NCBI GenBank assembly: GCA_040754375.1
Contig: JBFMCT010000011.1
Span: forward strand, 1,384 to 65,383
Direction: 5' to 3'
Source: Actinomycetota bacterium
GTDB taxonomy: Bacteria; Actinomycetota; Acidimicrobiia; Acidimicrobiales; AC-14
DNA: 64,000 nucleotides
Both the position numbers and the translations under genes were made by a program. The notes beneath the pieces were generated by a model. That model saw nothing but the letters and a program-made list of their open reading frames with translations. It had not been told where the DNA came from and searched no databases. This document shows positions 18,012 to 48,410 of this stretch, in pieces; position 1 is the stretch's first letter, and each line of letters opens with the position of its first letter.

Positions 18012-18988
18012 GTCGACGCCACCAGCGGCTTGACCCGGACGATGTGGGTACCGCGCGGCCCCTCGATGTCCGAGACCGTTCCTTGGAGCGAGGCGTACAC
18101 CAGTTGGGGGGTGGTGATGACGGCTTCCTCACCGCCCCGGCGCAGGAACCGCACGGCGGCCCGGACCTTGGGGGCCATGCTGCCCTCGGGGAACTCGCCC
18201 CTCTCCAGCCACTGCTCGGCCTCGTCCACCGCCATCTCGTGGATGGCCCTCTGGTCGGGCTGGCCGTAGTGGAGCAGCACCGTCTCCACCCCCGTGACCA
18301 GCACCAGCGCCTCGGCGGCCAGGGAGGTGGCCAGGCGCTGGGCCGCGTAGTCCTTGTCGATCACGGCGTCGATGCCGCCGTAGCCGTCGTGGTAGCGCAC
18401 CACCGGCACCCCTCCCCCGCCGGCCGCCACCACCACCTGGCCCTGGTTGAGCAGGGCTCGGATGGCGTCGGTCTCGAGGATGGCGACGGGCTCGGGCGAG
18501 GGGACTACGCGCCGGTAACCACGGTCGGCGTCCTTGTTGACCACCCATCCCCGTTCGGCGGCCATCGTCTCGGCCTGCTCCTTGGTCAGGAAGGGGCCGA
18601 TGAACTTCGTCGGGTTCTCGAAGGCCGGGTCGTCGGGGTTCACGGCCACGTGGGTGACGATGGCTACCGCCCCCCGCATCCACGACGCGTCGGCCACCCG
18701 GCGAAGTGCCAGGCAGATGAGGCTGCCCAGCTGGCCTTCGGTCATGGCCCCCAGAGAGAACAGGGGCTGGGCCGGCACCAGCTTCTGGCCCTCCTCCTGC
18801 TGGATGGCGAGGTTGCCGACCTGGGGGCCGTTGCCGTGGACGAGGACCACGCGCCACCCGCTGCGCATGAGCGAGGACACGGCCTTGGCCATGGCCGTGG
18901 CGTTGGCCTCCAGCTCCTGGTGCGTTCCCTGCTGGCTCTCCCGGGTGAGGGCGTTGCCGCCCAGCGCCACCACGGCCGTCTTCGGCAT
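18008..18988 (-). CDS. arcC: carbamate kinase
   Basis: 326 aa. VVALGGNAL, VLVHGNGPQVGNL, RRVVPSPEP and VVAAGGGGVP motifs are typical of carbamate kinase. Confidence 0.9.
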   Translation of the reverse strand: MPKTAVVALGGNALTRESQQGTHQELEANATAMAKAVSSLMRSGWRVVLVHGNGPQVGNLAIQQEEGQKLVPAQPLFSLGAMTEGQLGSLICLALRRVADASWMRGAVAIVTHVAVNPDDPAFENPTKFIGPFLTKEQAETMAAERGWVVNKDADRGYRRVVPSPEPVAILETDAIRALLNQGQVVVAAGGGGVPVVRYHDGYGGIDAVIDKDYAAQRLATSLAAEALVLVTGVETVLLHYGQPDQRAIHEMAVDEAEQWLERGEFPEGSMAPKVRAAVRFLRRGGEEAVITTPQLVYASLQGTVSDIEGPRGTHIVRVKPLVAST

Positions 18989-19002
18989 CGGCCCTCCTCT
19001 GA

Positions 19003-19047
19003 TGGACGAGAGCGGGTGTAGAGGATGAGAAATTGTCGTCCATTATA
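19003..19047 (-). promoter_or_regulatory. candidate arcC-operon promoter: TATAAT box plus inverted repeat
   Basis: Minus-strand TATAAT at 19047-19042. Inverted repeat TGGACGA (19003-19009) / TCGTCCA (19036-19042). RBS agaggaggg before the ATG at 18988. AT-rich island in GC-rich DNA. Confidence 0.3.
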
Positions 19048-19064
19048 GTGTAGGGTAGGCGCCG

Positions 19065-19418
19065 ATGAGCGGCCCGCCGGCCCCGCCGGTCCCACCCAGC
19101 CCGTTCTCTGACCCCGAGGTGCCGGGCGAGGTCCTCTACCGGTGGTTCCAGGCCGAGGAGCGCCTCTACCCTGTGGCCATGGTGATGCCCGAGCGTTACC
19201 AGGAGGCCGTGCGCCTGGTCGGGCGGCTGGCCGAGCAGCTCCGGGCGTCCTGCCCTGACATCCCCAGCCTCGTCACGGCCGATGCCGAGGCCCGGGACGC
19301 AGCGCAACGGCTCGCCTCCCACGACCCGGCCATGGCCGAGGACCTCGACCTGTCCCTGGTGGCCGGCGCGGCATGCTCGATCCGCTACCGGGAGCTGGCC
19401 GCTCAGCGCCGGGGCTGA
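19065..19418 (+). CDS. hypothetical protein (117 aa), first gene of the radical-SAM/GNAT operon
   Basis: ORF with an ATG start that ends 3 nt before the next start. No motif recognised. Confidence 0.5.
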   Translation: MSGPPAPPVPPSPFSDPEVPGEVLYRWFQAEERLYPVAMVMPERYQEAVRLVGRLAEQLRASCPDIPSLVTADAEARDAAQRLASHDPAMAEDLDLSLVAGAACSIRYRELAAQRRG

Positions 19419-19421: not shown

Positions 19422-20516
19422 GTGGACCTGGGCCACCTCATCACCGACCTGCAGAGCCGGGGCCTCCGTGTGGAGGCGCAGATGGAGGCCCGTCACGGCG
19501 GCGCCGGGCCCAGCGACTCGGGGATGCTGTGGATCGAAGGCGTGGCCGTGACCGTCCCGACCGACAACGCCCTCGCCCACGCCTCGCCTTATGTCCTGCG
19601 CCCCGAGGACGAGGGCTACGGCATCTACCGCGACGGTGAACGGCTGGCCGCCGCCACGGCCACGCCCCGGCCCCGCTACTACGACCTCTCGACGGCCGAC
19701 GGGACCCCGTACTGGAAGATCGCCCTGCTTCACCTCGACTCGCTGGCCAGCACCGTCTTGCAGACCTGCGCCTACTGGGGGAACTCCGACCAGTGCCAGT
19801 TCTGCGGTATCGGCCTGTCGTTGGACGGCCGGCGCACCATCGCCAAGAAGCGCCCCGAGCAGCTGGCCGAGGTGGCGGTGGCGGCCAAGGAGCTCGACGG
19901 CGCGGTCGACGCCACCCTGACCACCGGCAGCACCGCGGGGGCCGACAAGGGAGCGCTGTACGTGGCCACCTGCGGCGCGGCCGTCAAGGAGGCGGCCGGG
20001 CTACCGGTCGAGGTGCAGTTCGAGCCGCCCGACGACCTCGACGTGATCGACCGCGTCCACGACCTGGGGATCGACTCGGTGGGCATCCACGTCGAGTCGT
20101 TCGACCCCGTGGTGCTGGCCCGGGTGGCCCCGGCCAAGGCCCGCACCGGCATCGAGGGGTACTTCGCGGCCTGGGAGCGGGCGGTCAGCCTGTTCGGCGA
20201 GGGCCAGGTGTCGACCTATGTGATCCTCGGCATGGGGGAGGACGCCCAGCTCACCGTGGAGGGGTGCCGGCGGGCCATCGACGCGGGCGTCTACCCCTTC
20301 GTGGTCCCGTTGCGGCCCATCGCCGGCAGCCTGATGGGGGACTTCATGCCCCCCTCGGCCGAGTACACCGAGAGCATCTACCGGCGGGTGGTGCCCTACC
20401 TGCGGGAGCGGGGCCTGGACACCAAAGGCGTGGCTGCCGGGTGCGCCCGCTGCCAGGCGTGCTCGGCCATGGCCACCGTCGAGAAGCTCCTCACGATCAG
20501 CCCGTCGCGGTCTTGA
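19422..20516 (+). CDS. radical-SAM-like protein (MSMEG_0568/Sll0785-like by context)
   Basis: 364 aa. TIM-barrel-like pattern with a Cys triad C-x8-C-x2-C (CAYWGNSDQCQFC) and a C-terminal CARCQAC cluster. Followed directly by the GNAT gene, as in Nit1C clusters. Confidence 0.7.
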   Translation: MDLGHLITDLQSRGLRVEAQMEARHGGAGPSDSGMLWIEGVAVTVPTDNALAHASPYVLRPEDEGYGIYRDGERLAAATATPRPRYYDLSTADGTPYWKIALLHLDSLASTVLQTCAYWGNSDQCQFCGIGLSLDGRRTIAKKRPEQLAEVAVAAKELDGAVDATLTTGSTAGADKGALYVATCGAAVKEAAGLPVEVQFEPPDDLDVIDRVHDLGIDSVGIHVESFDPVVLARVAPAKARTGIEGYFAAWERAVSLFGEGQVSTYVILGMGEDAQLTVEGCRRAIDAGVYPFVVPLRPIAGSLMGDFMPPSAEYTESIYRRVVPYLRERGLDTKGVAAGCARCQACSAMATVEKLLTISPSRS

Positions 20517-20992
20517 GCACCGCCGCCGACGTCCGCAGCCGCCGTTCGTGCCGGATCGCCACCCGGCCCGACGAACTGGCCGTCCACTACGGGATCCGCC
20601 ACCGCGTGTTCGTGGAAGAACAGGGCCTGTTCGACGGCTCCGACATCGACAGTTGGGACGCGGTGGCGGGCGCCGTCCACGTCCTCGGCCTGTGGGACGA
20701 CGAGCCCGTCGGCGCCGTGCGCCTGTTCCCTCTCGACCCGTCCACCGACTTGTGGCAGGGCGACCGCCTGGCCGTGCTGGCCAGGTACCGGGTCCGCAAC
20801 CTGGGGATGCCCCTGGTCAAGTTCGCGGTGGCCACCGCCGCGGCCCGGGGTGGGCGGGAGATGGTGGCCCACGTCCAGCTACCGAACGTCGCCTTCTTCG
20901 AGCGCATCGGCTGGCACACCTACGGCGCGGTCGAGACCTACGTCGGGGTCGAGCACCAGCCCATGGCCATCGACCTCAGCCCGTACCGCTGA
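20513..20992 (+). CDS. GNAT N-acetyltransferase (MSMEG_0567/Sll0786-like by context)
   Basis: TTG at 20513 overlaps the previous stop (TTGA). 159 aa with HYGIRHRVFVEEQG.., VGAVRL.., GMPLVKFAVATAAARG, FFERIGW. Confidence 0.75.
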   Translation: MSTAADVRSRRSCRIATRPDELAVHYGIRHRVFVEEQGLFDGSDIDSWDAVAGAVHVLGLWDDEPVGAVRLFPLDPSTDLWQGDRLAVLARYRVRNLGMPLVKFAVATAAARGGREMVAHVQLPNVAFFERIGWHTYGAVETYVGVEHQPMAIDLSPYR

Positions 20993-21950
20993 GGCCCGTC
21001 ACCGGCTCGGCCGCGAGGTCGACCACGACGGCCGGACGGGCCCCGGCCGCGGTCACAGCCACCACGCCCGTGTCGTCGAGCGTCCCGATGACGGCCACCT
21101 CTATGGCCCGGTCGCGGAACGGCCGGGCGCATTCCTCCTCCCGCCCGGGTGGGACGCACAGCAGGAAGCCGTAGCAGGGGAACGCCAGGAGCCATGTGAC
21201 CAGGTCGGCCCCGGGCGGCCGCGGGACGGCCTCGAGGTCGATGGTGACTCCCAGGCCCTGGCACTCGACCAGCATGGCCGTGGAGCCGACGATGCCGGCC
21301 ATGCTCACGTCCTTGGCGGCCACGCACGCCCCTCGGTCGGCCACGTCGGCCAGGAGCCGGACGTCGGCCGCCAGCCGGTCGCCCCGCTCGGCGAAGGAGG
21401 CGAAGAAGGGGAAGTCTTCGCGCATGCGGCCCTCGGTAACGCACGCCAGCATCAGGCGTTGGCCGGCGGCCGCGTTGCGGACCGAGAGGACGCGGTTGGC
21501 CTCCCGTACCCGGCCCAACCCGAAAGCCGACACGGAGGCCGGCCCGTCGCGGACCGTGAGGTGCCCGCCCACCACGGGGACGTCGTAGAGCACCGAGGCG
21601 TGGCGCATGCCCTCCAGCACGGAGCGGGCCACGGGCTCGGGGGCCACCACCGTGTCCACGATGGCCAGCGGGACGGCGCCCATGGCCGCCAGGTCGTTGA
21701 CGTTGGCCAGCACGGCGGCGGCGCCCGCGCCGAACGGGTCGCGCGCCACGAATGCAGGCGCCATGGCCTCGCCGCCCACGGTGAGGACCAGGCCGCCGAC
21801 CTCCACCACCGCGCCGTCGTCGCCCGGCCCGTGGGCCCAGTCGGTGGCACCCAGGACCTCGGTGACGAGGCCGATGCCGGCCTTGTCCCGCAGGCCCGGA
21901 TGGGCCCGCAGGCGGGCGGCCACCGCCTCCACGTCCCATCGACCGGGCAT
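20976..21950 (-). CDS. AIR-synthase-related (PurM-superfamily) protein, Sll0787-like
   Basis: 324 aa. DDGAVV, AAAVLANVNDLAAMGAVPLAIVD, VPVVGGH and AKDVSMAGIVGS motifs of the PurM/ThiL/HypE fold. Its 3' end overlaps the convergent GNAT gene by 17 nt. Confidence 0.8.
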   Translation of the reverse strand: MPGRWDVEAVAARLRAHPGLRDKAGIGLVTEVLGATDWAHGPGDDGAVVEVGGLVLTVGGEAMAPAFVARDPFGAGAAAVLANVNDLAAMGAVPLAIVDTVVAPEPVARSVLEGMRHASVLYDVPVVGGHLTVRDGPASVSAFGLGRVREANRVLSVRNAAAGQRLMLACVTEGRMREDFPFFASFAERGDRLAADVRLLADVADRGACVAAKDVSMAGIVGSTAMLVECQGLGVTIDLEAVPRPPGADLVTWLLAFPCYGFLLCVPPGREEECARPFRDRAIEVAVIGTLDDTGVVAVTAAGARPAVVVDLAAEPVTGLSGTG

Positions 21951-21959: not shown

Positions 21960-21988
21960 TTGCACTAAAGTAAACGTCTCTCTACCAT
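21960..21988 (+). promoter_or_regulatory. candidate sigma70-type promoter of the comA-like operon
   Basis: TTGCAC (21960-65), 17-nt spacer, TACCAT (21983-88), then aagaggaga ATG (21998). This would give a very short leader. Confidence 0.3.
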
Positions 21989-21997: not shown

Positions 21998-22783
21998 ATG
22001 GGCCCACCGCCGTTCCGCCTGGACCTGCCTCCACGAGCGCCCCGACCCCGCCGGACGGGGCTCACCCACGTGCTCGACAAGGGTATGCCGGCGACCCAGC
22101 TGGCCGGCGTCCTGGAGTCGTGCGGGGCGTTCGTGGACGTGTGGAAGTTCGGCTGGGGCACGGCCTACGTCGACCCGCTGCTCGCCGGCAAGCTCGCCCT
22201 CCTGCGGGCCCACGACGTCCTCGGCTGCCTGGGGGGCACGCTCTTGGAGGTGGCCTGGGCACAAGGGCGGGCCGACGAGTACCTGGCCTGGGCCCGGGAG
22301 TTGGGCGTCCCGAGCGTGGAGGTCTCCCGCGGGGCCGTGCCTATGGGCGAGGACGACAAGGACCGGCTGATCCGCTCCGCGGTCGAAGCCGGGTTCGTCG
22401 TCCTGTCGGAGGTGGGCAGCAAGAGCGCCTCCTCCCAGCCTTTGCCCGACCAGTGGGGCAAGGAGGTGGAGCGCGACCTCGACGCCGGGGCCACCTGGGT
22501 CCTGGCCGAGGGGCGCGAGAGCGGGACGGTCGGCATCTACGACCACGCCGGGCGGGTACGAGAGGACGTCGTCGACGCCGTGGTGGACGCGGGCGGGGTG
22601 GGAAGGGTCGTGTTCGAGGCGCCCGCCAAGGACCAGCAGGCGTGGTTCATCCGCTGCTTCGGCTCGGACGTCAACCTGGCCAACGTCGCCCCTGCCGAGA
22701 TCCTCGGCCTGGAGACCCTGCGCCTGGGCCTGCGGGCGGACACCATCGGGCTGTCGCGGCCCCCGGCGGTGCGCCGGCGATGA
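21998..22783 (+). CDS. comA: (2R)-phospho-3-sulfolactate synthase (ComA) family protein
   Basis: 261 aa. It aligns along its length with my recollection of archaeal ComA: GLT.VLDKG.., D..KFGWGT, EVS.G, VLSEVG.K, DLDAGA..V..EGRESG, V.FEAP.K.QQ..FI..FG..VNLAN., LETLR.GLR.DT. Confidence 0.85.
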   Translation: MGPPPFRLDLPPRAPRPRRTGLTHVLDKGMPATQLAGVLESCGAFVDVWKFGWGTAYVDPLLAGKLALLRAHDVLGCLGGTLLEVAWAQGRADEYLAWARELGVPSVEVSRGAVPMGEDDKDRLIRSAVEAGFVVLSEVGSKSASSQPLPDQWGKEVERDLDAGATWVLAEGRESGTVGIYDHAGRVREDVVDAVVDAGGVGRVVFEAPAKDQQAWFIRCFGSDVNLANVAPAEILGLETLRLGLRADTIGLSRPPAVRRR

Positions 22784-23670
22784 ACACCGTCCCCGGCCAG
22801 TACCGGAAGGTCTCGGTCGCCCGGGTCGACGTTGCCCTCACCGTGGACGGCCTCACCGGCCACTTCCTGGGACGGGAGGTGTACCGCCACACCCGGTTCG
22901 TCGTGGTGCGCGACGGCCACGGCGCGACCGCGCTGGTCGAGGTGGACAAGCCGGCCCGCGGCGACCTGTTCTCTCCGGTGACGTCGGTGACCGTGCGGGC
23001 TCTGCCCGCCGACTGCGTGTACGTGGTCGCCCCCGACGCCGACACCGGCGTCCCCAGTGCGCTGGCGGCGGTGGCCCGCGACCAGGGCAACGGCGCTCGC
23101 TGCGTAGTGGTCGAGGGCCGCTACGACCACGTGAGCTTCATCCTCGACCCCGCCCCGGTGCGGGTGCGGGTGGGCGACGTCGTGCCGCCGATGCCGGCCA
23201 AGCTGGTCGACCAGGCCCGGCGGGTCCTCGACCTGGCCGAGGACCTGGCCCCTGTGGAGCTGGTGCCCGAGGTGGTGGACATGGCCGACCTGGCCCGGGC
23301 CGGCGGTCAGGGCCGGGCCGACCACTACCTGCTGCCGTGCCGGGCCTCGGGGTTCGAGCTCGACGGCGCCCAGGTCTCGTTCCTCGACGAGCGGCCGCCC
23401 CGGGCCGACTGGACGCTCATCGGCTGTGAACGGTCCCGTTCCATCCATCAGTGGTTCTACGGCGACCTGCCCGCCGGTCCCATCGAGACCTGCCCCCGCA
23501 AGCTCTTCACCGGTCCCGGCCCCCTGCTGACCAAGTGCTGCCTGCTGGAGAACGAGAACTGCACCGACGGCGACACCGTGGTGGTGCCCTGGGGCGCCTC
23601 GCTCGACCTGGTGCGCCAGGCCGTCACCGACCTGTCTAGGACCGGGGAGCCGGCGTGGGCGCCCGCCTGA
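22780..23670 (+). CDS. uncharacterised Cys-rich protein (296 aa)
   Basis: ATG at 22780 overlaps the comA-like stop (ATGA). C-terminal third carries LLPCRASG, LIGCERSRSIH, ETCPRK, LTKCCLLENENC. No family recognised. Confidence 0.6.
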   Translation: MNTVPGQYRKVSVARVDVALTVDGLTGHFLGREVYRHTRFVVVRDGHGATALVEVDKPARGDLFSPVTSVTVRALPADCVYVVAPDADTGVPSALAAVARDQGNGARCVVVEGRYDHVSFILDPAPVRVRVGDVVPPMPAKLVDQARRVLDLAEDLAPVELVPEVVDMADLARAGGQGRADHYLLPCRASGFELDGAQVSFLDERPPRADWTLIGCERSRSIHQWFYGDLPAGPIETCPRKLFTGPGPLLTKCCLLENENCTDGDTVVVPWGASLDLVRQAVTDLSRTGEPAWAPA

Positions 23671-25004
23671 GCGACTCCCGCCTGTACAGCCACCTGTGGG
23701 GCACCGACGAGCTGCGAGGGCTGTTCGACGAGGAGGCCCGGCTCCAGCGCTGGCTCGACATCGTCGCCGCCCTGGCCCGGGCCCAGGCCAAGCTCGGGAT
23801 CATCCCCGCGGCGTCGGCCGAGGAGATCACCCGCTCGGCCAGGGTGGAGCGCCTCGACCTGGACCTCGTGGCCGAGGAGACCCGCCGCACCTCGCACTCC
23901 ACCCTGGGGCTCATCCACGGCCTCCAGCGGGTGCTGCCCTCGCCCGCCCGCGACCACGTCTACGTCGGCACGACCGTGCAGGACGTCACCGATACGTGGA
24001 CGGCGCTGACGATGGCGGCCGTAGGACAGACCGTGTGGCGGGACCTGCGGGCCATCGAGGACCTGCTCATCGACCTGGCGGTGGCCCACCGGGGCACCCT
24101 GATGGTGGGGCGCACGCACGGCCAGCCCGGGGCGCCCATCACCTTCGGCTTCAAGGCGGCCTCATGGGCCGACGAGGTCCGCCGCCACCTGGCCCGCCTG
24201 GCCGACGCCAGGCCCCGGTGGCTGGTGGGCCAGCTCGGCGGCGCAGTGGGCGCCCTCGGGTTCTTCGGGGCCGACGGGCCGGCGCTGCGGGCCGCCTTCT
24301 GCGCCGAGCTCGGCCTCGGTGAACCGGCCATCTCGTGGTTGACCGCCCGCGACCGGGTAGCCGAGTTCGGCACTGTGCTGGCGATGGTGAGCTCGACCCT
24401 GGCCCGCATCGGCACCGAGGTCTACGAGCTCCAGCGGCCCGAGATCGGCGAGCTGCGCGAGCCCACGACAGCCTCGGCGGTGGGCAGCATCACCATGCCC
24501 CACAAGCGCAACCCCGAGGCCAGCGAGCACCTCGACACCCTCTCCCGACTGGTGCGGGCCAACGCCGGCGTGCTGCTCGACGGCATGGTCGGCGCCCACG
24601 AGCGAGACGGACGGGCGTGGAAGGCCGAGTGGGTGGCCTTTCCGGAGGTTTGCCTGCTCACCGGCTCGGCCCTCGCGGTCGCCATCGGGCTGCTGTCGGG
24701 GCTGGAGGTGGACGCCGAGGCCATGGCCACCCGGGCGTCGGCTGCGGAGTCGCGGGCCGGTTCGGAACGGGCCCTGTCCATCCTCACCCGGCGGCTGGGG
24801 CGAAACGAGGCCCAGGACGCCCTTCACCAGGCGCTGCAACCGGGTGCCCTCCACCCGCCCGACCTGGCCCAGGCCGGGCTCCTGACCGACGACGAACTGG
24901 GATCCCTGGCCGCCCCCGCCCTTGACGGCGCGCGGGCGATGGTGGACGAGGTGGTGGCGCGCGCCCGGGCCGCCCGCCGGGGCGAGCCTGAGATATGGGC
25001 GTGA
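23655..25004 (+). CDS. fumarate-lyase-superfamily enzyme, adenylosuccinate lyase / 3-carboxymuconate cycloisomerase-like
   Basis: 449 aa. GRTHGQPGAPITFG and the signature loop GSITMPHKRNPEASE. Confidence 0.8.
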   Translation: MGARLSDSRLYSHLWGTDELRGLFDEEARLQRWLDIVAALARAQAKLGIIPAASAEEITRSARVERLDLDLVAEETRRTSHSTLGLIHGLQRVLPSPARDHVYVGTTVQDVTDTWTALTMAAVGQTVWRDLRAIEDLLIDLAVAHRGTLMVGRTHGQPGAPITFGFKAASWADEVRRHLARLADARPRWLVGQLGGAVGALGFFGADGPALRAAFCAELGLGEPAISWLTARDRVAEFGTVLAMVSSTLARIGTEVYELQRPEIGELREPTTASAVGSITMPHKRNPEASEHLDTLSRLVRANAGVLLDGMVGAHERDGRAWKAEWVAFPEVCLLTGSALAVAIGLLSGLEVDAEAMATRASAAESRAGSERALSILTRRLGRNEAQDALHQALQPGALHPPDLAQAGLLTDDELGSLAAPALDGARAMVDEVVARARAARRGEPEIWA

Positions 25005-25996
25005 ACGGACCTCCCTGGGGTCGGTTGCCCCGGTTCCCCCTGGCCGCGCTCCCTACCCCCCTGGTGCGGGCCCGGCATCTGGAGGCCCGGGTCGCCCGCG
25101 GCCGGCGGGGCCCGATCGTCCTCGTCAAGCGCGACGACCTCAGCGGCTTCGCGGCCGCCGGCCACAAGGCCCGCCAGCTCGAGTACCTGGTGGGCGCGGC
25201 GCTGGCCGAGGGGTGCGACGTCCTGGTCACGGGCGGGGGGCCGAGCTCGAACTGGTGCCCGGCAGCCGCCGTGGCGGCCCGGGTGGCCGGCCTCGAATGC
25301 CAGCTGGTCTCGTTCGGCACCCGGCCCGAGCGCACCCATCCCAACCTGGCCGCCTCGCTGGCCAGCGGGGCCGAGGTCCGGTTCACGGGCGATCCCGACC
25401 GCGACAACTTGGAGGCGGCCATCGTGGCGGCCGCCGACGACCTGCGGGCTGCCGGCCGGCGCCCGTTCGCCGTGCCCCGGGGTGGTGCCAGCCCCCTCGG
25501 GGCCGTGGGCATGGTCGCGGCGGCCTACGAACTAGCCGTCCAGCTCGGCGACCTCGAGGCCACGGCCGTCGTGGTGGCCACCGGGTCGGGCGGGGCCTGC
25601 GCCGGGCTGGCCGCGGCCGGGCGCTTCCCGGTCGTCGGCGCCTCGGTCAGCCGTCCCCTCGACGAGGCCGCCGCCCAGGTCGGGCGGCTGGCCCAGGCCT
25701 CGGCGTCCCTGCTCGGCCTCCCGGCGCCCACCCCGCCGGAGCTGTTCGACGTGCGGGGGCCGGGCTTCGGCGTCGCCTCCGACGAGGGCGAGGCGGCCGC
25801 CACCGTCGCCCTCCACACCGAGGGGCTGCTGCTCGACCCGACGTACACGGCTAAGGCGTTCGCCCTCCTGCTCCGGCTGGCCGAGGCCGATGACGGCCAC
25901 CCGAGCCCGGGACCGCTGGTCTTCTGGCACACGGGCGGGCTGCTCTCGGCCGCCGACCACCTGGCGCGTACGGCCGCCGTGGGAGCCGGTGCATGA
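24995..25996 (+). CDS. PLP-dependent enzyme of the ACC deaminase / D-cysteine desulfhydrase / cysteate sulfo-lyase fold
   Basis: 333 aa. LPTPL, VKRDDLSG..AAGHKARQLEYL (Lys in the PLP position), ATGSGG, and LDPTYTAKA near the C-terminus. Confidence 0.75.
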   Translation: MGVNGPPWGRLPRFPLAALPTPLVRARHLEARVARGRRGPIVLVKRDDLSGFAAAGHKARQLEYLVGAALAEGCDVLVTGGGPSSNWCPAAAVAARVAGLECQLVSFGTRPERTHPNLAASLASGAEVRFTGDPDRDNLEAAIVAAADDLRAAGRRPFAVPRGGASPLGAVGMVAAAYELAVQLGDLEATAVVVATGSGGACAGLAAAGRFPVVGASVSRPLDEAAAQVGRLAQASASLLGLPAPTPPELFDVRGPGFGVASDEGEAAATVALHTEGLLLDPTYTAKAFALLLRLAEADDGHPSPGPLVFWHTGGLLSAADHLARTAAVGAGA

Positions 25997-27495
25997 GGAC
26001 CTTTGGCCCGGCCACGTCGGGTCCCGCCCCCGAACTGGTCGAGTCGGGTTTCGCCCTCGAGAACGCCGACGCCCCCCTTCTCCATCGTGGCCTCAACCTG
26101 GCCGACATGGCCCACGTCCTGGACCTGCGCAGCCAGCAAGTCATCCCCGACGACGCCGCCCGCCAGCTCCTCGGGCTGCTCCTCGAGGTCCACGAGATGC
26201 CGGCCGAGGAGTTCCCCTACGACCCGTCGTTCGGGGAGGCGTACAACTCCCGGGAACGGTACTTCGTCTCCCGTCTGGGCGACACGGCTGGCTGGCTGCA
26301 CGCCGGCCGGCCCCGGCGGGAGGCCACCCGGATCGCCCTGCGGCTACTGCTGCGCCGCCAGTTGGTCGAGGTGCTCGCCGACGCCGCCCGGCTGGCCGAC
26401 AGCATGGCCGATCAGGCGGCCGCCCACGTGGGCTCGGTGATGCCCGACCAGACCTACCTCCAGCAGGCCCAGCCGTCCACGTTCGGCCATTACATCCTCT
26501 CGTTCGCCTACCCGACCCTGCGCGACAGCCGGCGCCTGCTCGACGCCGTGTCCTGGGTGAACGCCAGCCCGGGCGGGGCCGGGTGTGTCAACGGCAGCCG
26601 GCTGTTGGCCGACCGGGAACTGCTGGCCGACCTGCTCGGGTTCGACGGCGTGATCGAACACACCCGCGACGCCATGTGGCAGGTCGACGGGCTCATCCAC
26701 ATCATGGGCACCACGGCCAGCATGCTCTCCAACCAGAGCAAGTTGGCCGAGGACCTGGAGATCTGGTCGAGCAGCGAGTTCGACTACGTGGACCTCGACC
26801 CTGGCTTCACCCGGGCCAGCGTGCTCATGCCCCAGAAGCGCAACCCGTACTCGCTGTCGATCGTGCGGGGTGCCCACGGCATCCTCATCGGGCGGCTGTC
26901 CGGCTTCCTGGCCGTGGTCAAGAGCCCCTCGGCCCGCAGCGACAACTTGATCTTCGCCTACGGCGAGGTCCCCCGGTCCCTCGATCTGGCCGCCCGCGTC
27001 ACCCGCCTGATGGGCGGGGTCGTCCGCACCTTGGCGGTCAACACCGACCGCATGGCCGATGCCCTGCGCGACGGGTTCACCCAGGCCACCGACCTGGCCG
27101 AACACATCGTCACGACCACCGGCATCGACTACCGCACGGCCTACCTGGTCGTGGGCCAGGCCGTGCGGGTGGCCAGCGCGGCCGGGCTGCGGGGGGTGGA
27201 CATCACGGGCGAGATGCTCGACCGGGCGGCCACGGACCTGCGGGGCCAGCCGCTGGGGCTGGCGGGCGCCGACCTCACCGACGTGCTCGACCCCCGCCAG
27301 ATCGTCGCCACCCGGTCCGCCCCGGGCGGGGCCGCGCCGTCGGCCGTCGAGGCCATGGTGGGCACGTGCCGGGCCGAGGCGGCCGAGGTCCTGGCCGAGG
27401 CCATGAGGCGCCAGGGGGACTTCGACCACGCCGAGGAGCTGCTCGTGGAACGGGCCGTGGCCGAGGCGCACGGCCGGCAGGAGGTTGCCCAGTGA
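25993..27495 (+). CDS. fumarate-lyase-superfamily enzyme, argininosuccinate lyase-like
   Basis: 500 aa. QTYLQQAQPSTFGH, and a signature loop ASVLMPQKRNPYS that deviates from GSSxMPxKxNP. ATG overlaps the previous stop (ATGA). Confidence 0.8.
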   Translation: MRTFGPATSGPAPELVESGFALENADAPLLHRGLNLADMAHVLDLRSQQVIPDDAARQLLGLLLEVHEMPAEEFPYDPSFGEAYNSRERYFVSRLGDTAGWLHAGRPRREATRIALRLLLRRQLVEVLADAARLADSMADQAAAHVGSVMPDQTYLQQAQPSTFGHYILSFAYPTLRDSRRLLDAVSWVNASPGGAGCVNGSRLLADRELLADLLGFDGVIEHTRDAMWQVDGLIHIMGTTASMLSNQSKLAEDLEIWSSSEFDYVDLDPGFTRASVLMPQKRNPYSLSIVRGAHGILIGRLSGFLAVVKSPSARSDNLIFAYGEVPRSLDLAARVTRLMGGVVRTLAVNTDRMADALRDGFTQATDLAEHIVTTTGIDYRTAYLVVGQAVRVASAAGLRGVDITGEMLDRAATDLRGQPLGLAGADLTDVLDPRQIVATRSAPGGAAPSAVEAMVGTCRAEAAEVLAEAMRRQGDFDHAEELLVERAVAEAHGRQEVAQ

Positions 27496-28895
27496 AGCTG
27501 CCCACCGACATCGAGGTTGTGAACGTCGGCCTCCCGCTGTTCGCCGACGCCGTCCGCCAGCAGGGCCGGCCGGTGGTGCAGGTCGACTGGCGCATCCCCG
27601 CGGGCGGGGACCTCGAACTGGTGGCCGCCCTGAGCCGGCTCTACGGCCGTCACGGGGCGGCCATCGACGAGGCCAATGCGGAGGTCGCCCGGCGGTTGGA
27701 CCAGGGTTCGCCCAAGTTGGTGGGCCTCGAGCGGGCACTCGACGTCCTGCCCGGTGTCGACGACCGAACGGTCATCCACTGCGGCCCGGCCATCGGCTGG
27801 ACCGACATGTGCGACCCCCTGCGCCGGTCGGTCCGGGCCGCGGTAATGGCCGAGGGGTGGGCGGCGACGCCCGCCGAGGTGGACGGGCTGATGGCGCGCC
27901 ACGGGGTACGGCTGGAGCCGGCCAACCACCACGGGGCCGTCGTGCCCATGGCCAGCGCCATCGGCCCTACCGCGCCGATGCTCGTCGTGGAGAACGAGGC
28001 CGGCGGTACCCGCGCCTTCTCGGCCCTCAACCAGGGCCCGGGTGAAGTGGCCTGGTTCGGGCGGGAGACTCCCGCGGCCGTGGACCGGCTGGTCTTCCTA
28101 CGGGAGGTGGCCGGTCCGCTGCTGGCCGAGTGCCTGCGCCACTCGGGGCCGCTCGACGTGTTCACCCTGGCGGCCCAGGGACTGCAGATGGGCGACGACC
28201 TGCACATGCGCACCCAGGCCACGACCAACCTGTTCGTGCGGGCCCTGCTGCCCCACCTGATGGGGCTCGAAGACCGGCGACGGGCCGACCTGGGCCGCTT
28301 CCTCTCCACCGACCACCTGTTCTTCCTGAACGTGGCCATGGCCGGGGCCAAGTCGCTCACCCTGTGGGCCGAACAGGTACAGGGATCGAGCGTGGTCACC
28401 ACCATGGCCCGCAACGGCACGACCTACGGGGTCCGCCTGCCAGGCTCGCAGCGTTGGTTCGTCACCGCCTCGCCGCCCATCGGCCAGGCCCTCTACTACC
28501 CCGGTTACGGTCCCGAGCACGGCGCCCCCGACATCGGCGACAGCGCCGTGCTGGAGCTGGTCGGCCTGGGCGGTTCGGCGGCCGCCGCCTCGCCCGCGGT
28601 GGCCGCCTTCGTCGGCGGCACCATGGCCGACGCCATCGCCTCGACCGAGGCCATGGACCACGTGTGCGTGGCCCGCAGCACCCGGTTCAAGCTGCCGTTG
28701 CTCGACTTCCGCGGCTCACCGGTGGCCGTCGACGTCCGCAAGGTGGTCGAACTGGGCATCACACCCAAGGTCAACACCGGCATCCTCCACGCCCACGACG
28801 GCTCCGGACAGGTCGGCGCGGGTGTGGCCGAGGCCCCCATCGCCTGCTTCCGCGAGGCGTTGCTGGACCTCGACCGCCGCCTGTCCTCGTCCTGA
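27492..28895 (+). CDS. DUF1116 (YlbE-like) protein
   Basis: GTG at 27492 overlaps the previous stop (GTGA). 467 aa resembling E. coli YlbE-type proteins that accompany FdrA. The listed ORF 25890..28895 has a 534-codon spurious extension. Confidence 0.7.
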   Translation: MKLPTDIEVVNVGLPLFADAVRQQGRPVVQVDWRIPAGGDLELVAALSRLYGRHGAAIDEANAEVARRLDQGSPKLVGLERALDVLPGVDDRTVIHCGPAIGWTDMCDPLRRSVRAAVMAEGWAATPAEVDGLMARHGVRLEPANHHGAVVPMASAIGPTAPMLVVENEAGGTRAFSALNQGPGEVAWFGRETPAAVDRLVFLREVAGPLLAECLRHSGPLDVFTLAAQGLQMGDDLHMRTQATTNLFVRALLPHLMGLEDRRRADLGRFLSTDHLFFLNVAMAGAKSLTLWAEQVQGSSVVTTMARNGTTYGVRLPGSQRWFVTASPPIGQALYYPGYGPEHGAPDIGDSAVLELVGLGGSAAAASPAVAAFVGGTMADAIASTEAMDHVCVARSTRFKLPLLDFRGSPVAVDVRKVVELGITPKVNTGILHAHDGSGQVGAGVAEAPIACFREALLDLDRRLSSS

Positions 28896-28905
28896 TGAGG
28901 CGCTA

Positions 28906-29718
28906 GTGCTCGAACTGGGCCTGGGCGCCCGAGAGGCGCTCTCGGTGCCCGGCACGGGCACCGTGATCGGGGCCTACACCAAGGCCGCCTACGTCCGGGT
29001 GCCGGGCGGGCTGTTCGCCCTCACCACACGCGACGTGGCCTCCGGTCCCCTGCACGCCCGCACCGACCTGCCCGTCGCGCGCCTCGGCGTGGGCGACCGG
29101 GTTGTGGTCACGCCGAGGCTGCTCCAGGCCGGGCCGCTCCTGTTCGACCTCCGGGCGGCCACCGTCTGGCGGGGCCGCCTCCCCCAGGTCGGCCCCCCGG
29201 GCCACGCCGGCACCGCCGGCCGCGGAGTCGACGTCCCGGGCCTGGCCCGCCGCCTGGGCGGGGCCGGTCCCGGGCTCACACCCGCGGGTGACGACGCCCT
29301 GGCCGGGGTCCTCCTCGTGGCCCGGCTCCACGGTGGTCAGCCGGCCGAGGAGGGCCTCGTGGGGATCGCGGCCGCCGTCCCCACCAACGACATCTCCCGG
29401 GCCTTCCTCGTTTGGGCGGCCCGGGGCCAGAGCACCGAGCCCGTCCACCAGTTCCTCCTGACCGGCGACCCCCACCACCTGGGCACCGTGCGGGCCATGG
29501 GGCACACCTCCGGAGCGGCCTTGGCTGACGGCCTCATGTACGCATTGCACGCTTTTGCAAGGCCCGTGCAACAGGACGTCGCAGGCTGCGGGGTACCAGC
29601 CGAACCCCGAGGAGGTCCCGCGTGGCCCGGACGATTCTCACTCTCCGCCCCACCACTGTCTGCCCGTGCTGGTTCGCCACCGCCGCCCCAGCCCACCACG
29701 ACCGGCTGGTCCGGGTGA
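28906..29718 (+). CDS. DUF2877 (YlbF-like) protein
   Basis: GTG at 28906. GPGLTPAGDDALAGVLLV motif as I recall for DUF2877. About 270 aa, like YlbF. Confidence 0.6.
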   Translation: MLELGLGAREALSVPGTGTVIGAYTKAAYVRVPGGLFALTTRDVASGPLHARTDLPVARLGVGDRVVVTPRLLQAGPLLFDLRAATVWRGRLPQVGPPGHAGTAGRGVDVPGLARRLGGAGPGLTPAGDDALAGVLLVARLHGGQPAEEGLVGIAAAVPTNDISRAFLVWAARGQSTEPVHQFLLTGDPHHLGTVRAMGHTSGAALADGLMYALHAFARPVQQDVAGCGVPAEPRGGPAWPGRFSLSAPPLSARAGSPPPPQPTTTGWSG

Positions 29719-29912
29719 CGACCGACCTGACCGCGACCCTGGACCTGGTGGAGATGGCCGTCACCTGGGCCGAGCTCGACTACAGCCACGAGGACGTCAT
29801 CCCGCCCCGGCGCTGGCTGGAGTTCGCGGCCGAGCACGAGTGGGAAGACCCCGACGTGGCCGAACGGCTCTTCAGCGCGGCCGCCGAGATCGCCCTCAGG
29901 CGGGCGGGTTGA
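29715..29912 (+). CDS. possible small acidic protein (65 aa)
   Basis: GTG at 29715 overlaps the previous stop (GTGA). ..VEMAVTWAELDYSHEDVIPPRRWLEFAAEHEWEDPDVAERLF... Its 3' end overlaps the convergent OsmC-like gene by 17 nt. Confidence 0.3.
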   Translation: MTTDLTATLDLVEMAVTWAELDYSHEDVIPPRRWLEFAAEHEWEDPDVAERLFSAAAEIALRRAG

Positions 29913-30348
29913 CGACGACCTCGACCTCGTTCAGCGTACGAAGGGTGTTGGACACGTAACACACGGCCTTGGCCCGCTCAACCAGGCGGTCCAGCTCCTC
30001 CCGCTCGTGGCTGGAGGTGACCTCGACCCGGAGATGGGAGAACTTGGGGCCGTCGTAGGCGCCCACGACCAGCACGGCCAGGTCGGCCAGCTCGATGCCG
30101 CGCTTGCGCCCGACGTGGGCCACGGCGAGGGCGAAGCACGACCCCAGCGAGGCCAGGAAGAGGTCGGTCGGCTGCGGCCCGGTGCCCTCCCCTCCGGCGT
30201 GCTCCGGCTCGTCCACCCGTACCTCGAACTCACCGGCCGTGACCCGGCAGCGGTAGCCGCCCTCCCATACGGCGTATACCGAGCGCGAGCTCGAGGGCGG
30301 ACGCTCAGCCGTGCTCGTGGCCGTGCCCGTGCTCGTGCCCACTGGCAT
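29896..30348 (-). CDS. OsmC/Ohr-family peroxiredoxin-like protein; start uncertain
   Basis: ..GGEGTGPQPTDLFLASLGSCFALAVA.. and ..AKAVCYVSNTL.. carry the two conserved Cys of the OsmC fold. The first canonical in-frame start after the upstream stop region is ATG 30348, which would overlap the His-tail coding region by 44 nt. Confidence 0.7.
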   Translation of the reverse strand: MPVGTSTGTATSTAERPPSSSRSVYAVWEGGYRCRVTAGEFEVRVDEPEHAGGEGTGPQPTDLFLASLGSCFALAVAHVGRKRGIELADLAVLVVGAYDGPKFSHLRVEVTSSHEREELDRLVERAKAVCYVSNTLRTLNEVEVVVNPPA

Positions 30349-30709
30349 GATCGTGACCGTGCCCGCCGGCATGATCGTGACCGGCCGGGCGCTCGGCCAG
30401 CTCACCGGCCCGGGCCTCCAGCTCACCGGCGCCCACGACGCCCCTGCCGGCCAACACCCGCTCCAGGGCGGTGAGCCAGCAGCGGTAGTAGCTCCAGCAC
30501 TCGTCGCCCTCGCGCTCCCAACCGCCGACGGCGGCGATGAGCTCACGACGGAAGTCCTCCCAGTCGATGGTCCCGGCGTCGTGGAGGGCCATGGCCAGCC
30601 CGAACGCCCGGCTCTCCCACGGGGCCGCGAAGACCAGCTCGCCGTTGCTCCGGGGGGGCGCCCCCGGCCCCTCGATGTCCAGCACCGCGCCCGGCGACGG
30701 GACAGTCAT
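30305..30709 (-). CDS. nitrile hydratase accessory (activator) protein with C-terminal His-rich tail
   Basis: ATG at 30709 overlaps the alpha stop (ATGA). 134 aa. [18 protein letters not shown].. resembles the beta-subunit-like NHase activators. Tail is [24 protein letters not shown]. Confidence 0.75.
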
Positions 30710-31305
30710 GGAGCCGCCACCTTGGCCACCCCGACCATGGCGTCGCGCGTCACCAGCGAGGCCAGGTCTTCCTCGCTCATCCCCTCGGTGCCCGCCGGCC
30801 GTTCGGGCAGCACCATGTAGCGCACCTCCGAACTGCTGTCCCATACCCGCAGCTCGATGTCGTCGCCCAACTCCAGCCCCATCTCGGCCAGCAGGGCCCG
30901 GGGGTCGCGCACCATCCGCGACCGGTAGGCGGGGTCCTTGTACCAGCCCGGGGGCAGGCCCAGCACCGGCCACGGGTAACAGGAGCACAGCGTGCAGACG
31001 ACGACGTTGTGCACCGACGGCGTGTTCTCCAGTACGACGATGTGCTCGCCCTGGGGGCCCTTGAAGCCCAGTTCGGCGATCGAACCCGTGCCGTCCTCCA
31101 GCAGGCGGGCCTTGTAGTCAGGGTCGGCCCAGGCGTGGGCCACGACCTTGGCGCCGTTCATGGGGCCGACGTCCTGCTCGTACATCTTGATGAACTTGTC
31201 CATGAGGGAGGGGTCGACGATCCCCCGCTCCACCAGGATCGATTCGAGAGCCTCCGTCCGCAGCTCGATGGGCAGGCGTTCGGCGGTGGTGTCCGACGTG
31301 GTCAC
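30706..31305 (-). CDS. nthA: nitrile hydratase alpha subunit, cobalt type
   Basis: GTG at 31305 overlaps the beta stop (GTGA). Metal-site motif [14 protein letters not shown] (Thr/Tyr variant = Co type; the Fe type is CSLCSCT). Confidence 0.9.
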
Positions 31306-31967
31306 GGCGCGGCCTCCAGATAGGACTCGTACAGGTCGAACCTCAGGGTGAACTTCTCGGCGTCCTCGCCCCACAGCTCAGTCGAGCCGAACTCGACGTT
31401 GTAGACGTGCTGGGGGTTCTCCCCCAGGAAGTGGGCGTTGGTGTCGGGCAGCACCTGGGCGGGCAGGACGAGGCGCACGACACCCGCCCGCCCGCGCACG
31501 TAGCGGGCCAGCCGGGTGTGGCCCGTCGGGTGGATGTCGCGCGCCCGCACCCGGTCCCCCACCGCGAACTTGGGCGGGTCGTCGATCTGGCGGATCGACC
31601 CGGCCGCCGTGGGCTGGTAGTCGGGCTTGTCGGGCTCGGGGACGGGCGGCTCCTCCACGTCCTCGCCCCGCAGCTTGCGGGCCCGGGCGTCGACCGCCCC
31701 GGGGGCGATGATCGACGATCCCACCAGCAGGTTCTCGGTCATCTTGAGCCAGCGGCCGTAGTAGCCGTAGGCCAGGTAGTCGATGGGGTGCTGGCGGTTC
31801 AGGCCGTGGCGGAACGTGTCGAGGTTGGTGCCCGAGATCCGCATCGACAGCAGCGCCATGGCGAACGCCCGCTTCTCCCACTCCTCATGGAAAGGCGGGT
31901 CGTCGGGCGGGTCGAGGCTGACGCGGCCGAAACCCTGCAGCCCGCCCATGTCGGCGACGGTGTCCAA
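31302..31967 (-). CDS. nthB: nitrile hydratase beta subunit
   Basis: 221 aa. MGGLQGFG..., [11 protein letters not shown], ..YYGRWL.., ..[12 protein letters not shown]... Gene order beta-alpha-accessory. Confidence 0.9.
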
Positions 31968-32051: not shown

Positions 32052-32540
32052 TCAGACGGTCCAGGTGTTGATCTGGAACGCCCCGGCCCGCCAGGCGGTC
32101 AGCGCCGAGTCGAGCACGTCCAGCGGGTGGAAGGCCTTCACGCCATCGATGAGGTCGTCCTCCCGGAAGCCGTAGAGCGCGCCCATGGCGAAGCGGCAGG
32201 CGTAGACGTTCGCTCCCTCCTTGAGGAGGGTCTTGATCTGGTTGTTGATGGCCATGTGCCCGGGGAAGGCCTCCTGGCCGACAGCCGGGAAGCCCCGGGT
32301 GCCTGACGCCAGCAGGACGCCCGGCCCGTAGAGGATGATGTTGACCTCGAACCCCTTGCGCACCAGCCGGGTCGAGGTCAGCAGGTTCACCAGCGCGACC
32401 GAACCCTCGTAGGGGACGGTGTGTATGAAGACGAAGGCCCGCTCGCCGGGGTTGGCCTTGATGTCTTCGAACAGCTTCTCGTCCGTGTCGAAAAGGACCT
32501 CGCCGTCGGCGGGGCGTTCCTGGTTGACTGTCTTCGGCAT
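32052..32540 (-). CDS. DsrE-like ~160-aa protein (MSMEG_0572/Sll0783-like by size and context)
   Basis: 162 aa. ATG directly abuts the upstream stop (TAGATG) with RBS gaggagag. The pattern AFVFIHTVPYEG...VNIILYGPGV...ANVYACRFAMGA suggests a DsrE/DsrF-type fold. Confidence 0.6.
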   Translation of the reverse strand: MPKTVNQERPADGEVLFDTDEKLFEDIKANPGERAFVFIHTVPYEGSVALVNLLTSTRLVRKGFEVNIILYGPGVLLASGTRGFPAVGQEAFPGHMAINNQIKTLLKEGANVYACRFAMGALYGFREDDLIDGVKAFHPLDVLDSALTAWRAGAFQINTWTV

Positions 32541-32855
32541 CTACTCTCCTCGTGTCTCGGTAAGGGTCTGCGGTGGGGTGGTGACTCGGCCGTCGGCGCT
32601 GACGGCCGGGGTTCCTCGTAGCGGGGGATGCGCCCAGTTCTGACGATGGCTGCCCGGCATCGCCCGGATCGTGAAGTGCCGCAGTCCCCAGGGCAGCCGG
32701 CGGTAGACGGGCGCGAAGACCTGTAGCCAGAACTTCTCCCGCACGCCCTTGGGCCGGGGCGGGCCGGCCCGCCCGTACTTGTCGGCCATCCGCCGTTGGG
32801 CGTCGACGAGCAGGTAGTGCTCGGAGTTCTGGCGGAGCCAGTGGGCGAAGGCCAC
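32541..32855 (-). CDS. small conserved-looking protein (104 aa; MSMEG_0570-like by size and position)
   Basis: GTG at 32855, 2 nt after the oxidoreductase stop. ..HWLRQNSEHYLLVDAQRRMADKYG...KFWLQVFAPVYRRLPWGLRHFTIRAMPGSHRQNW... The rest of ORF 32541..33899 is antisense shadow. Confidence 0.5.
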   Translation of the reverse strand: MAFAHWLRQNSEHYLLVDAQRRMADKYGRAGPPRPKGVREKFWLQVFAPVYRRLPWGLRHFTIRAMPGSHRQNWAHPPLRGTPAVSADGRVTTPPQTLTETRGE

Positions 32856-34925: not shown

Positions 34926-34928
34926 GCC

Positions 34929-48396: not shown

Positions 48397-48410
48397 CTGG
48401 CACGTATCAG

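Follow-up and report, generated by a model that had tools for sequence, protein, structure and literature searches.

Coenzyme M (CoM) biosynthesis genes were stated in 2024 to be known only from archaeal methanogens and from aerobic bacteria that use alkenes (PMC11507031). The bacterial pathway was elucidated in Xanthobacter autotrophicus Py2, which carries it as xcbABCDE (Wu et al. 2022, PMC9457059). There, XcbB makes phosphosulfolactate from sulfite and phosphoenolpyruvate (PEP), loss of phosphate catalyzed by XcbC leaves sulfoacrylate, XcbD adds cysteine to sulfoacrylate to form 3-sulfopropionylcysteine, XcbE cleaves and decarboxylates this product to sulfoethanethioaldehyde in a pyridoxal phosphate (PLP)-dependent reaction, and XcbA, a [2Fe-2S] protein, reduces the thioaldehyde to CoM (PMC9457059). 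Here, we describe an eight-gene operon (positions 21998–29912, + strand) in a 64-kb, 73% GC stretch of DNA from an Actinomycetota bacterium (contig JBFMCT010000011.1, hereafter the window). There is strong support for genes 1–5 encoding this already-known chemistry, in the order XcbB-XcbA-XcbD-XcbE-XcbC, and the remaining three genes, together with their surroundings, point to a setting in which CoM genes had not been described.

Two other known systems bear on that setting. In Escherichia coli, AllF, AllG, and AllH together form oxamic transcarbamylase (OXTCase), an enzyme that turns oxalurate and phosphate into oxamate and carbamoyl phosphate and feeds the carbamate kinase AllK (PMC11326118). 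The second is the Nit1C cluster, which is genetically linked to cyanide assimilation and whose nitrilase is needed for Pseudomonas growth on cyanide (PMC7815647). Its counterpart in Mycobacterium smegmatis, the gpr cluster MSMEG_0565-0572, is induced >500-fold by nitrogen starvation via GlnR, makes cells peroxide-resistant, and increases NADPH/NADP (PMC6039565).

We assigned families with Pfam and NCBIfam profiles, weighing bit scores against curated cutoffs. The first gene (xcbB/comA, 21998–22783, +) encodes a predicted phosphosulfolactate synthase using PEP and sulfite, which scored 276 bits to PF02679 (cutoff 25) and 249 bits to the archaeal equivalog TIGR03849 (cutoff 280), matched M. jannaschii ComA structures over its full length at 176–180 bits, and is 49–50% identical to its counterparts in the actinobacterial strains JS614 and NBB4. 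The second (xcbA, DUF7714, 22780–23670, +) would be the [2Fe-2S] reductase that turns sulfoethanethioaldehyde into CoM. It scored 337 bits to NF052538 (cutoff 150) and 300 bits to PF24830, and its cysteines C187, C216, C238, C253, and C254 are invariant in 16 sequences including those of JS614 and NBB4 and are also present in the Xanthobacter copy. The sequence-only reading of this DNA had listed this gene as an unknown Cys-rich protein. The third gene (xcbD, 23655–25004, +) encodes an adenylosuccinate-lyase-like candidate 3-sulfopropionylcysteine synthase (NF052536, 587 bits, cutoff 600) that is 42% identical to Xanthobacter XcbD, with GSITMPHKRNPE invariant.

The fourth product (xcbE, 24995–25996, +) is a PLP enzyme of the ACC-deaminase/D-Cys desulfhydrase fold, for which XcbE is the best model (NF052537, 235 bits, cutoff 450), ahead of the cysteate sulfo-lyase CuyA at 183 bits. 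It is 39% identical to Xanthobacter XcbE and 39–48% identical to known XcbE proteins, and in the alignment its Lys58, presumably the PLP lysine of this fold, is invariant. The fifth (xcbC, 25993–27495, +) is a putative ArgH-like phosphosulfolactate phosphate-lyase (NF052535, 434 bits, cutoff 575). Its loop RASVLMPQKRNPY is common to the aligned XcbC proteins of Xanthobacter, JS614, and NBB4. The ArgH-type loop ASVLMPQKRNPYS, earlier described as divergent, turned out to be the XcbC signature, for which the Xanthobacter enzyme has RASKILPQKRNPY and which JS614 and NBB4 share. Homology and the published enzymology thus indicate that the operon should be able to make CoM.

Compared with the Xanthobacter Py2 genes, the window retains the same five families at 35–42% identity. 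Also conserved are the loop of XcbC, GSITMPHKRNPE in XcbD, the lysine of XcbE, and the five cysteines of XcbA. However, the order differs (B-A-D-E-C vs. A-B-C-D-E in Xanthobacter), the window adds three genes predicted to be co-transcribed, and unlike the Py2 cluster it has no CoM-consuming epoxide enzymes near xcb. The closest match in arrangement is on two plasmids, pNOCA01 of Nocardioides sp. JS614 and pMYCCH.01 of Mycolicibacterium chubuense NBB4, in which the order B-A-D-E-C is identical, protein identity is 43–54%, and a flavin adenine dinucleotide (FAD) oxidoreductase resembling coenzyme A-disulfide reductase (CoADR) lies close by, as in the window. These plasmid-borne clusters belong to alkene or vinyl-chloride metabolism, with coenzyme A-transferase genes near xcb on both plasmids and an EtnE-type gene and monooxygenase genes beside xcb on the JS614 plasmid. 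Unlike the window, they lack AllG, AllH, AllF, carbamate kinase, Nit1C-type genes, and nitrile hydratase. We also considered whether the window could be a known plasmid and rejected this, as blastn against plasmids returned only alkene-type xcb clusters of ~65% identity. In a side observation on Xanthobacter pXAUT01 (L085, 5400–6540), an xcbA copy 5′ of xcbB does not stay in one frame: its N-terminal and C-terminal halves are read in different frames. The PLSDB gene table lacks this copy, which might be frameshifted or might reflect a sequencing error.

For comparison across genomes, we collected related loci with an XcbA-alignment scan of one genome per GTDB species, which gave 383 loci, and compared the 80 best, labeled nearly all Actinomycetota with one Dormibacterota and a few generic “bacterium.” In a library of 1.8 billion proteins, XcbA relatives fall into 448 clusters at 50% identity, and an exact-sequence look-up of the window XcbA gave no record. 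The eight plus-strand open reading frames (ORFs) that had been claimed for 21998–29912 are present. We judged ORF reality by GC content at codon positions, and third-position GC of 0.86–0.95 vs. 0.47–0.61 at position 2 strongly signals coding sequence. Of the seven junctions, six were exactly as previously described. ATGA stands at 22780 and 25993 and GTGA at 27492, the overlaps at 23655 and 24995 measure 16 and 10 nt, respectively, and 10 nt separate allG from the start at 28906. The seventh, GTGA at 29715, is present in the sequence, but no gene boundary falls there. The starts of xcbA, xcbD, xcbE, xcbC, and allH are backed by homologue alignments, and the 16-nt xcbA/xcbD overlap is also found in two related loci (L001 and L002). 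A scan for intrinsic-terminator-like sites found none on the + strand inside the operon, and the junctions bear out the earlier prediction of a single, tightly packed gene unit. Gene calls in two other related contigs (L093 5407–7626; L094 841–2571 and 11383–12792) read as an XcbA-XcbD protein of 739 aa, a radical SAM-GNAT protein of 576 aa, and an extended AllH of 469 aa, which are either real fusions or frameshift artefacts.

A predicted promoter (21960–21988, +) precedes xcbB, consisting of −35 TTGCAC, the 17-nt spacer TAAAGTAAACGTCTCTC, and −10 TACCAT. The spacer holds a conserved box, AAAGT(A/G)(A/G)AC, whose background frequency is 0.04 per kb and which is a probable operator. The same layout stood 5′ of xcbB in 49 of 73 related loci, which come from different orders and span several actinobacterial lineages. 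A generic sigma-70 promoter scan gave no match here; the conserved promoter emerged only from comparing loci. The xcbB ATG (21998) lies 9 nt past the −10 element in the window and usually 7 nt past it in related loci, which indicates that the operon mRNA is leaderless or near-leaderless. Because this conserved promoter is directly 5′ of xcbB, xcbB is likely the first gene of the unit, and co-transcription of the xcb genes with allG, allH, and the small eighth gene from one promoter is a strongly supported prediction.

We also looked for a common operator. The 10-mer AGTAAACGTC occurs only twice in the 64 kb, at 21969–21978 (+) in the xcbB promoter spacer and at 34234–34243 (−) in the divergent region between the reductase and regulator genes described below. 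It could be a shared operator, but it was not found in the corresponding region of 23 other loci, leaving co-regulation unproven. Separately, the divergent intergenic region between the carbamate kinase gene and a 117-aa gene (18980–19075) is an AT-rich island containing the inverted repeat ATGGACGA-N26-TCGTCCAT, and ATGGACGA is present in the reductase/regulator intergenic region as well.

Genes 6 and 7 had been called DUF1116 and DUF2877 proteins, and these families are correct, as were the earlier calls of ComA, two aspartase/fumarase-superfamily lyases, and an ACC-deaminase-fold PLP enzyme, and the earlier statement that sulfite is added to PEP by ComA. What those calls missed is that the two genes appear to encode AllG and AllH, subunits of an AllFGH-type oxamate carbamoyltransferase (oxamic transcarbamylase). 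The allG-like gene (27492–28895, +) scored 221 bits to PF06545 and 267 bits to PDB 3CLQ, and its product shares 37% identity with E. coli AllG across 407 aa. The allH-like gene (28906–29718, +) scored 59.5 bits to PF11392, and its product is 35% identical to E. coli AllH over 99 aa; its homologues end earlier, and its last ~50 codons are a non-conserved tail overlapping gene 8. The third subunit and the kinase lie in a divergent unit about 4 kb upstream of the operon. There, an allF/fdrA-like gene (16464–18011, −) encodes a succinyl-CoA-synthetase-alpha-like subunit that scores 400 bits to NF004760 (cutoff 433) and shares 37% identity with E. coli AllF across 504 aa; a carbamate kinase gene (18008–18988, −) scored 302 bits to NF009007 (cutoff 266), with 40% identity to E. 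coli YbcF/AllK.

All four members of the E. coli allF-allG-allH-allK set (fdrA-ylbE-ylbF-ybcF) are therefore represented in the window at 35–40% identity, and all three subunits that the E. coli enzyme needs are encoded (PMC11326118, PMC9843812). Unlike in E. coli, the genes are on two divergent units, allG and allH are joined to xcb, and ~50 aa from the AllF C-terminus are now part of AllG. This last difference is visible in the N-terminal ~50 aa of the window AllG (27492–27650), which are homologous to E. coli AllF residues 506–554 at 37% identity; the match between AllG N-terminus and AllF C-terminus was also seen against PDB 3DMY and NF004760, and the window AllF is 515 aa vs. 555 aa in E. 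coli. The relocation of a segment from one protein to the other argues that they work in one complex. The E. coli set is also linked to the allantoin/ureidoglycolate pathway, whereas no scanned window gene matched an allantoin-pathway family and the window lacks such a context.

The eighth gene had been started at 29715, which would give a 65-aa protein, and public gene calls give the same version. However, the residues that are invariant in its family (C14, C16, F18, A19, H25, H26, and D27) are all encoded 5′ of that position, its homologues are 94–124 aa long, and a GTG at 29622 is preceded by GGAGG six nt upstream. Together, these place the gene at 29622–29912 (+), encoding a small conserved CxC...HHD protein of 96 aa that overlaps the tail of the AllH ORF by 97 nt. 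It matched no Pfam or NCBIfam family. The AlphaFold2 model was all-alpha with an acidic helical body and moderate confidence (pLDDT 66), and it had no PDB fold match at E ≤ 0.001.

The operon is set in a block of about 15.3–34.9 kb, a ~20-kb supercluster that recalls Nit1C (nitB-H), the M. smegmatis gpr cluster, and Synechocystis sll0783-0787. Four families shared with these clusters are above cutoff: an MSMEG_0565-family GT4 glycosyltransferase (15295–16470, −, start approximate; TIGR04047, 371 bits, cutoff 260), an MSMEG_0568-family radical SAM protein of the Nit1C NitD type (19422–20516, +; TIGR04043, 388 bits, cutoff 304), an MSMEG_0567/Sll0786-family GNAT (20459–20992, +, start 20459 or 20513; TIGR04045, 110 bits, cutoff 68; 57% identical to the L001 GNAT), and an MSMEG_0572/Sll0783-family DsrE-like nitrogen-starvation protein (32052–32540, −; TIGR04044, 207 bits, cutoff 110). 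An AIR-synthase-like gene of the sll0787/NitF type (20976–21950, −), divergent from xcbB, had TIGR04049 as its best match at 257 bits vs. a cutoff of 321. By contrast, no scanned window protein matched any nitrilase model, that for the Nit6803-type nitrilase (NitC) included, and the MSMEG_0569 flavoprotein model was not among the hits listed for window proteins. In place of these two, the window has a nitrile hydratase with its accessory protein and a CoADR-like reductase, and it further adds Xcb, AllFGH, carbamate kinase, OsmC, and two small conserved proteins. As a side observation, the AIR-synthase-like protein scored 167 bits to methanogenesis marker 2 (TIGR03267), above the PurL, ThiL, SelD, and HypE models; we take this marker to be an uncharacterized protein of CoM-using methanogens.

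Downstream of the operon and convergent with it is a gene for an OsmC/Ohr-like two-Cys protein (29896–30348, −; PF02566, 68 bits), found in 50 of 84 loci. Next are the nitrile hydratase accessory protein with a His-rich tail (30305–30709, −; TIGR03889, 69 bits, cutoff 46), the alpha subunit (30706–31305, −; TIGR01323, 303 bits, cutoff 250), whose motif is presumably of the cobalt type, and the beta subunit (31302–31967, −; TIGR03888, 186 bits, cutoff 152). We considered thiocyanate hydrolase as an alternative identity and rejected it, since TIGR03887 scored 194 bits, below its cutoff of 291, and the nitrile hydratase alpha model passes. Farther on, a CoA-disulfide-reductase/Nox-family flavoprotein with the single-Cys motif YSPCGIPY (32858–34195, −; TIGR03385, 246 bits, cutoff 579) is 34% identical over its full length to the FAD oxidoreductase adjoining JS614 xcbB. 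That a counterpart stands beside xcbB in alkene-type clusters suggests that the reductase is tied to CoM itself. Divergent from it is a helix-turn-helix-cupin (PuuR-like) regulator (34281–34925, +; HTH_3 and Cupin_2; PuuR model, 73 bits), found in 31 loci.

Of the two small conserved proteins, neither had a family match even at E ≤ 0.1. One is a 117-aa protein (19065–19418, +) whose gene is always 5′ of the radical SAM gene, with 35–75% identity in 35 loci. The other is an unannotated 104-aa protein (32541–32855, −) with the pattern WLRxNSEHYLL...FWLRVFAPVYRxLPW...MPGSHR, tblastn matches in 38 related loci, and a position between the reductase and DsrE-like genes in the loci whose coordinates were compared.

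This supercluster recurs, in varying gene order, in the 80 best loci of the XcbA scan. The closest relatives in the XcbA scan are Acidimicrobiia at 64–71% identity, and cultured carriers include Nocardioides guangzhouensis, Streptomyces chiangmaiensis, Planosporangium flavigriseum, Nonomuraea, and Streptosporangium. Searching the related loci with window proteins (tblastn), we found that AllG directly follows XcbC on its strand in 47 of the 61 informative loci and lies at another place in the locus in 13 more. In the 47 fully flanked loci, AllG was present in 45, the AIR-synthase-like gene in 41, OsmC in 36, AllF in 35, carbamate kinase in 34, radical SAM in 34, the DsrE-like gene in 32, and the reductase in 31; nitrile hydratase was common across related loci but not universal. 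Gene order within the supercluster is shuffled between lineages, which indicates that selection keeps the genes together and that their co-location is not simply descent from a single ancestral arrangement. When contexts were instead centered on AllG, xcb was adjacent in five of six (the window and four of five sampled homologues at 69–79% identity).

The same searches bear on alkene metabolism. In the 64-kb window, JS614 EtnE, Py2 XecA, Py2 2-KPCC, and the JS614 methane-monooxygenase-like protein had no tblastn match. Across the fetched actinobacterial loci, the epoxyalkane:CoM transferase and JS614 monooxygenase queries matched nothing, and the 2-KPCC query found only flavoproteins of ~25% identity. 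None of the 80 best loci has a homologue of the transferase or of that monooxygenase gene. The recurrence of the xcb supercluster without alkene-metabolism genes in the DNA examined points to an unrecognized use of CoM.

Two side observations concern genes adjoining related superclusters. In Streptomyces loci L086 and L087 (18263–21010), three genes come after the supercluster, with Pfam matches to Asn_synthase (weak), AIRC, and Ni_insertion, a trio that we presume to resemble LarE/LarB/LarC of nickel-pincer cofactor synthesis. In L095 (13422–16130), an ABC importer (SBP_bac_3 binding protein, permease, and ATPase) sits between allH and the OsmC-like gene and may be a clue to an imported substrate.

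On balance, and with moderate confidence, we favor the reading that the CoM operon, AllFGH, and the Nit1C/gpr-type supercluster serve one function in which CoM is a dedicated thiol. As a best guess, the system would scavenge nitrogen or serve redox needs in a way that depends on CoM, with a carbamoyl intermediate handled by AllFGH and carbamate kinase. By homology, AllG and AllH would assemble with the AllF-like protein into an OXTCase-type enzyme that phosphorolyzes a carbamoyl-X compound to carbamoyl phosphate, which carbamate kinase would convert to NH3, CO2, and ATP. The gene context suggests that CoM would be kept reduced by the CoADR-like flavoprotein and would partner with the DsrE-like and OsmC-like proteins, and conserved co-location suggests that the whole gene set would act in a single nitrogen-starvation-type (Nit1C/gpr) function.

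More speculatively, the carbamoyl donor could be S-carbamoyl-CoM, a thiocarbamate being the most economical bridge between a thiol and a carbamoyltransferase. It might arise by addition of CoM to cyanate, or from cyanide and oxidized CoM via a CoM-thiocyanate that the cobalt nitrile hydratase would hydrate. AllFGH would then phosphorolyze it to carbamoyl phosphate and free CoM, mirroring the thioester phosphorolysis of AllF's succinyl-CoA-synthetase relatives. CoM would thereby be a recycled carrier turning one-carbon nitrogen compounds into carbamoyl phosphate, a new route of nitrogen assimilation in Actinomycetota, although we regard this specific role as unlikely.

Several points weigh against the single-function reading. 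XcbC, XcbD, and XcbE all score under their strict NCBIfam cutoffs, so the product could differ from CoM. AllFGH activity has been demonstrated only on oxalurate and oxamate. One contig (L088) has the whole supercluster, with AllG beside the AIR-synthase-like gene, but no xcb in cis, an arrangement suggesting that the xcb block is a module inserted at a divergent promoter. Nitrile hydratase was not found within the fetched ±10 kb of the N. guangzhouensis locus, which keeps AllF, AllG, and carbamate kinase and has an AhpD-like gene in nitrile hydratase's place; a route from nitrile hydratase to AllFGH therefore cannot be universal. Moreover, the scheme does not explain what the radical SAM, GNAT, AIR-synthase-like, and glycosyltransferase proteins do, and an AIR-synthase-like enzyme might work the other way, as a dehydratase.

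A serious, though lesser, possibility is that CoM is a low-molecular-weight redox thiol for peroxide detoxification in nitrogen starvation, with AllFGH and carbamate kinase merely co-regulated for salvage of nitrogen from an ordinary ureide and chemically unconnected to CoM. The CoADR-like flavoprotein would then be a CoM-disulfide reductase, and the OsmC-like proteins, joined in some genomes by AhpD-like ones, would use CoM. This fits the core membership of the OsmC-like, CoADR-like, and DsrE-like proteins, the CMD/AhpD-like, thioredoxin, and DJ-1 genes in some loci, and the presence of the reductase beside xcb in alkene-type clusters too, as well as the peroxide resistance and raised NADPH/NADP conferred by the M. 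smegmatis gpr cluster (PMC6039565). Yet allG and allH come right after xcbC in the same operon in most lineages, a placement that simple co-regulation would not demand, and allantoin or ureide genes were not found nearby among the scanned window genes. It also counts against this possibility that Actinomycetota as a phylum are known to use mycothiol.

It is quite unlikely, in our estimation, that CoM or an Xcb intermediate is instead elaborated into a larger thiol or sulfonate cofactor or metabolite. The glycosyltransferase, GNAT, AIR-synthase-like ligase/dehydratase, and radical SAM protein would carry out the elaboration, carbamate kinase would supply carbamoyl phosphate, and AllFGH, running in the synthetic direction, would use it to carbamoylate the product. 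Dehydration of an S-carbamoyl group, of the kind that HypE carries out, might in turn yield S-cyano. In favor of this reading, the GT4 protein has weak matches to the mycothiol and bacillithiol glycosyltransferase families MshA (109 bits) and BshA (58 bits), mycothiol synthesis likewise includes a GNAT, and the AIR-synthase family includes HypE, to whose model the window protein scored 24.9 bits. E. coli OXTCase has also been assayed in the synthetic direction (PMC11326118), and an NCBI description of the Nit1C cluster as possibly biosynthetic is cited in PMC7815647. However, carbamate kinases are normally catabolic, it would be counter-intuitive for a nitrogen-starved cell to make a nitrogen-rich group, CoM offers neither an amine nor a carboxylate for ligation, and any nitrile formed would be destroyed by a nitrile hydratase or nitrilase of the same cluster.

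Ordinary CoM supply for alkene, epoxide, or vinyl chloride metabolism, as in Xanthobacter, JS614, and Mycolicibacterium, would explain why the same five xcb genes stand in the same order as on the JS614 and NBB4 plasmids, but it is very improbable given that homologues of the transferase, 2-KPCC, and the JS614 monooxygenase-like protein were not found in the window, that the transferase and monooxygenase were not found in the fetched actinobacterial loci either, and that the rest of the window is housekeeping. Barely credible is the scheme of the sequence-only reading, in which two aspartate-type N-donation and fumarate-release lyases and a cysteate sulfo-lyase form a new sulfonate/ureido pathway: it draws on lyase superfamily membership and the 183-bit CuyA match, whereas both lyases match XcbD and XcbC specifically, signature loops included, the published reactions are cysteine addition by XcbD and phosphate elimination by XcbC (PMC9457059), and the XcbE model outscores CuyA. 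Its broader suggestion that sulfonate and ureido or carbamoyl chemistry are linked was reasonable, although the link itself is unproven.

The five-gene core was thus already known, and what is new is that allG, allH, and a small gene extend the operon and that it is embedded in a widely conserved Nit1C-like/AllFGH/nitrile-hydratase supercluster. The related loci further imply wide CoM biosynthesis in Actinomycetota, from xcb loci without a recognizable CoM-transferase or alkene monooxygenase gene. None of the papers listed in our literature searches appears to tie CoM genes to nitrile hydratase, carbamate kinase, DUF1116, or Nit1C. If CoM is truly made, its bacterial distribution and role would be far wider than thought, and the Nit1C/gpr cluster and the AllFGH transcarbamylase would gain a concrete, testable biochemical partner in growable organisms. 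If the S-carbamoyl-CoM route is true, it would be a third role for CoM, after archaeal methanogenesis/alkane oxidation and bacterial epoxide carboxylation, and would add a new substrate class for the AllFGH family. Because several carriers are cultured, the proposal is directly testable.

The remainder of the window consists of housekeeping genes, and a few features beyond the supercluster deserve mention. Right after the helix-turn-helix-cupin regulator is a gene for an LnmK-family bifunctional acyltransferase/decarboxylase (34926–35897, +; TIGR04098, 282 bits), which is probably outside the supercluster, as it is absent from all related loci. It is followed by a large SARP/BTAD-AAA-TPR (AfsR-like) regulator (35877–39107, −). 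We considered whether these two neighbors mark a secondary-metabolite cluster and rejected this, given that LnmK occurs in no related locus and that no polyketide synthase or non-ribosomal peptide synthetase domain was found among the scanned genes. Genes for tRNA-Glu(CTC) and tRNA-Gln(CTG) (39232–39406, −) come after the AfsR-like regulator. Farther along, a TPR-CHAT protein adjoins an ECF-type sigma factor (44467–48438, −); a CHAT/TPR protein and sigma factor also neighbor the cluster in L094, and a CHAT gene neighbors it in L001.

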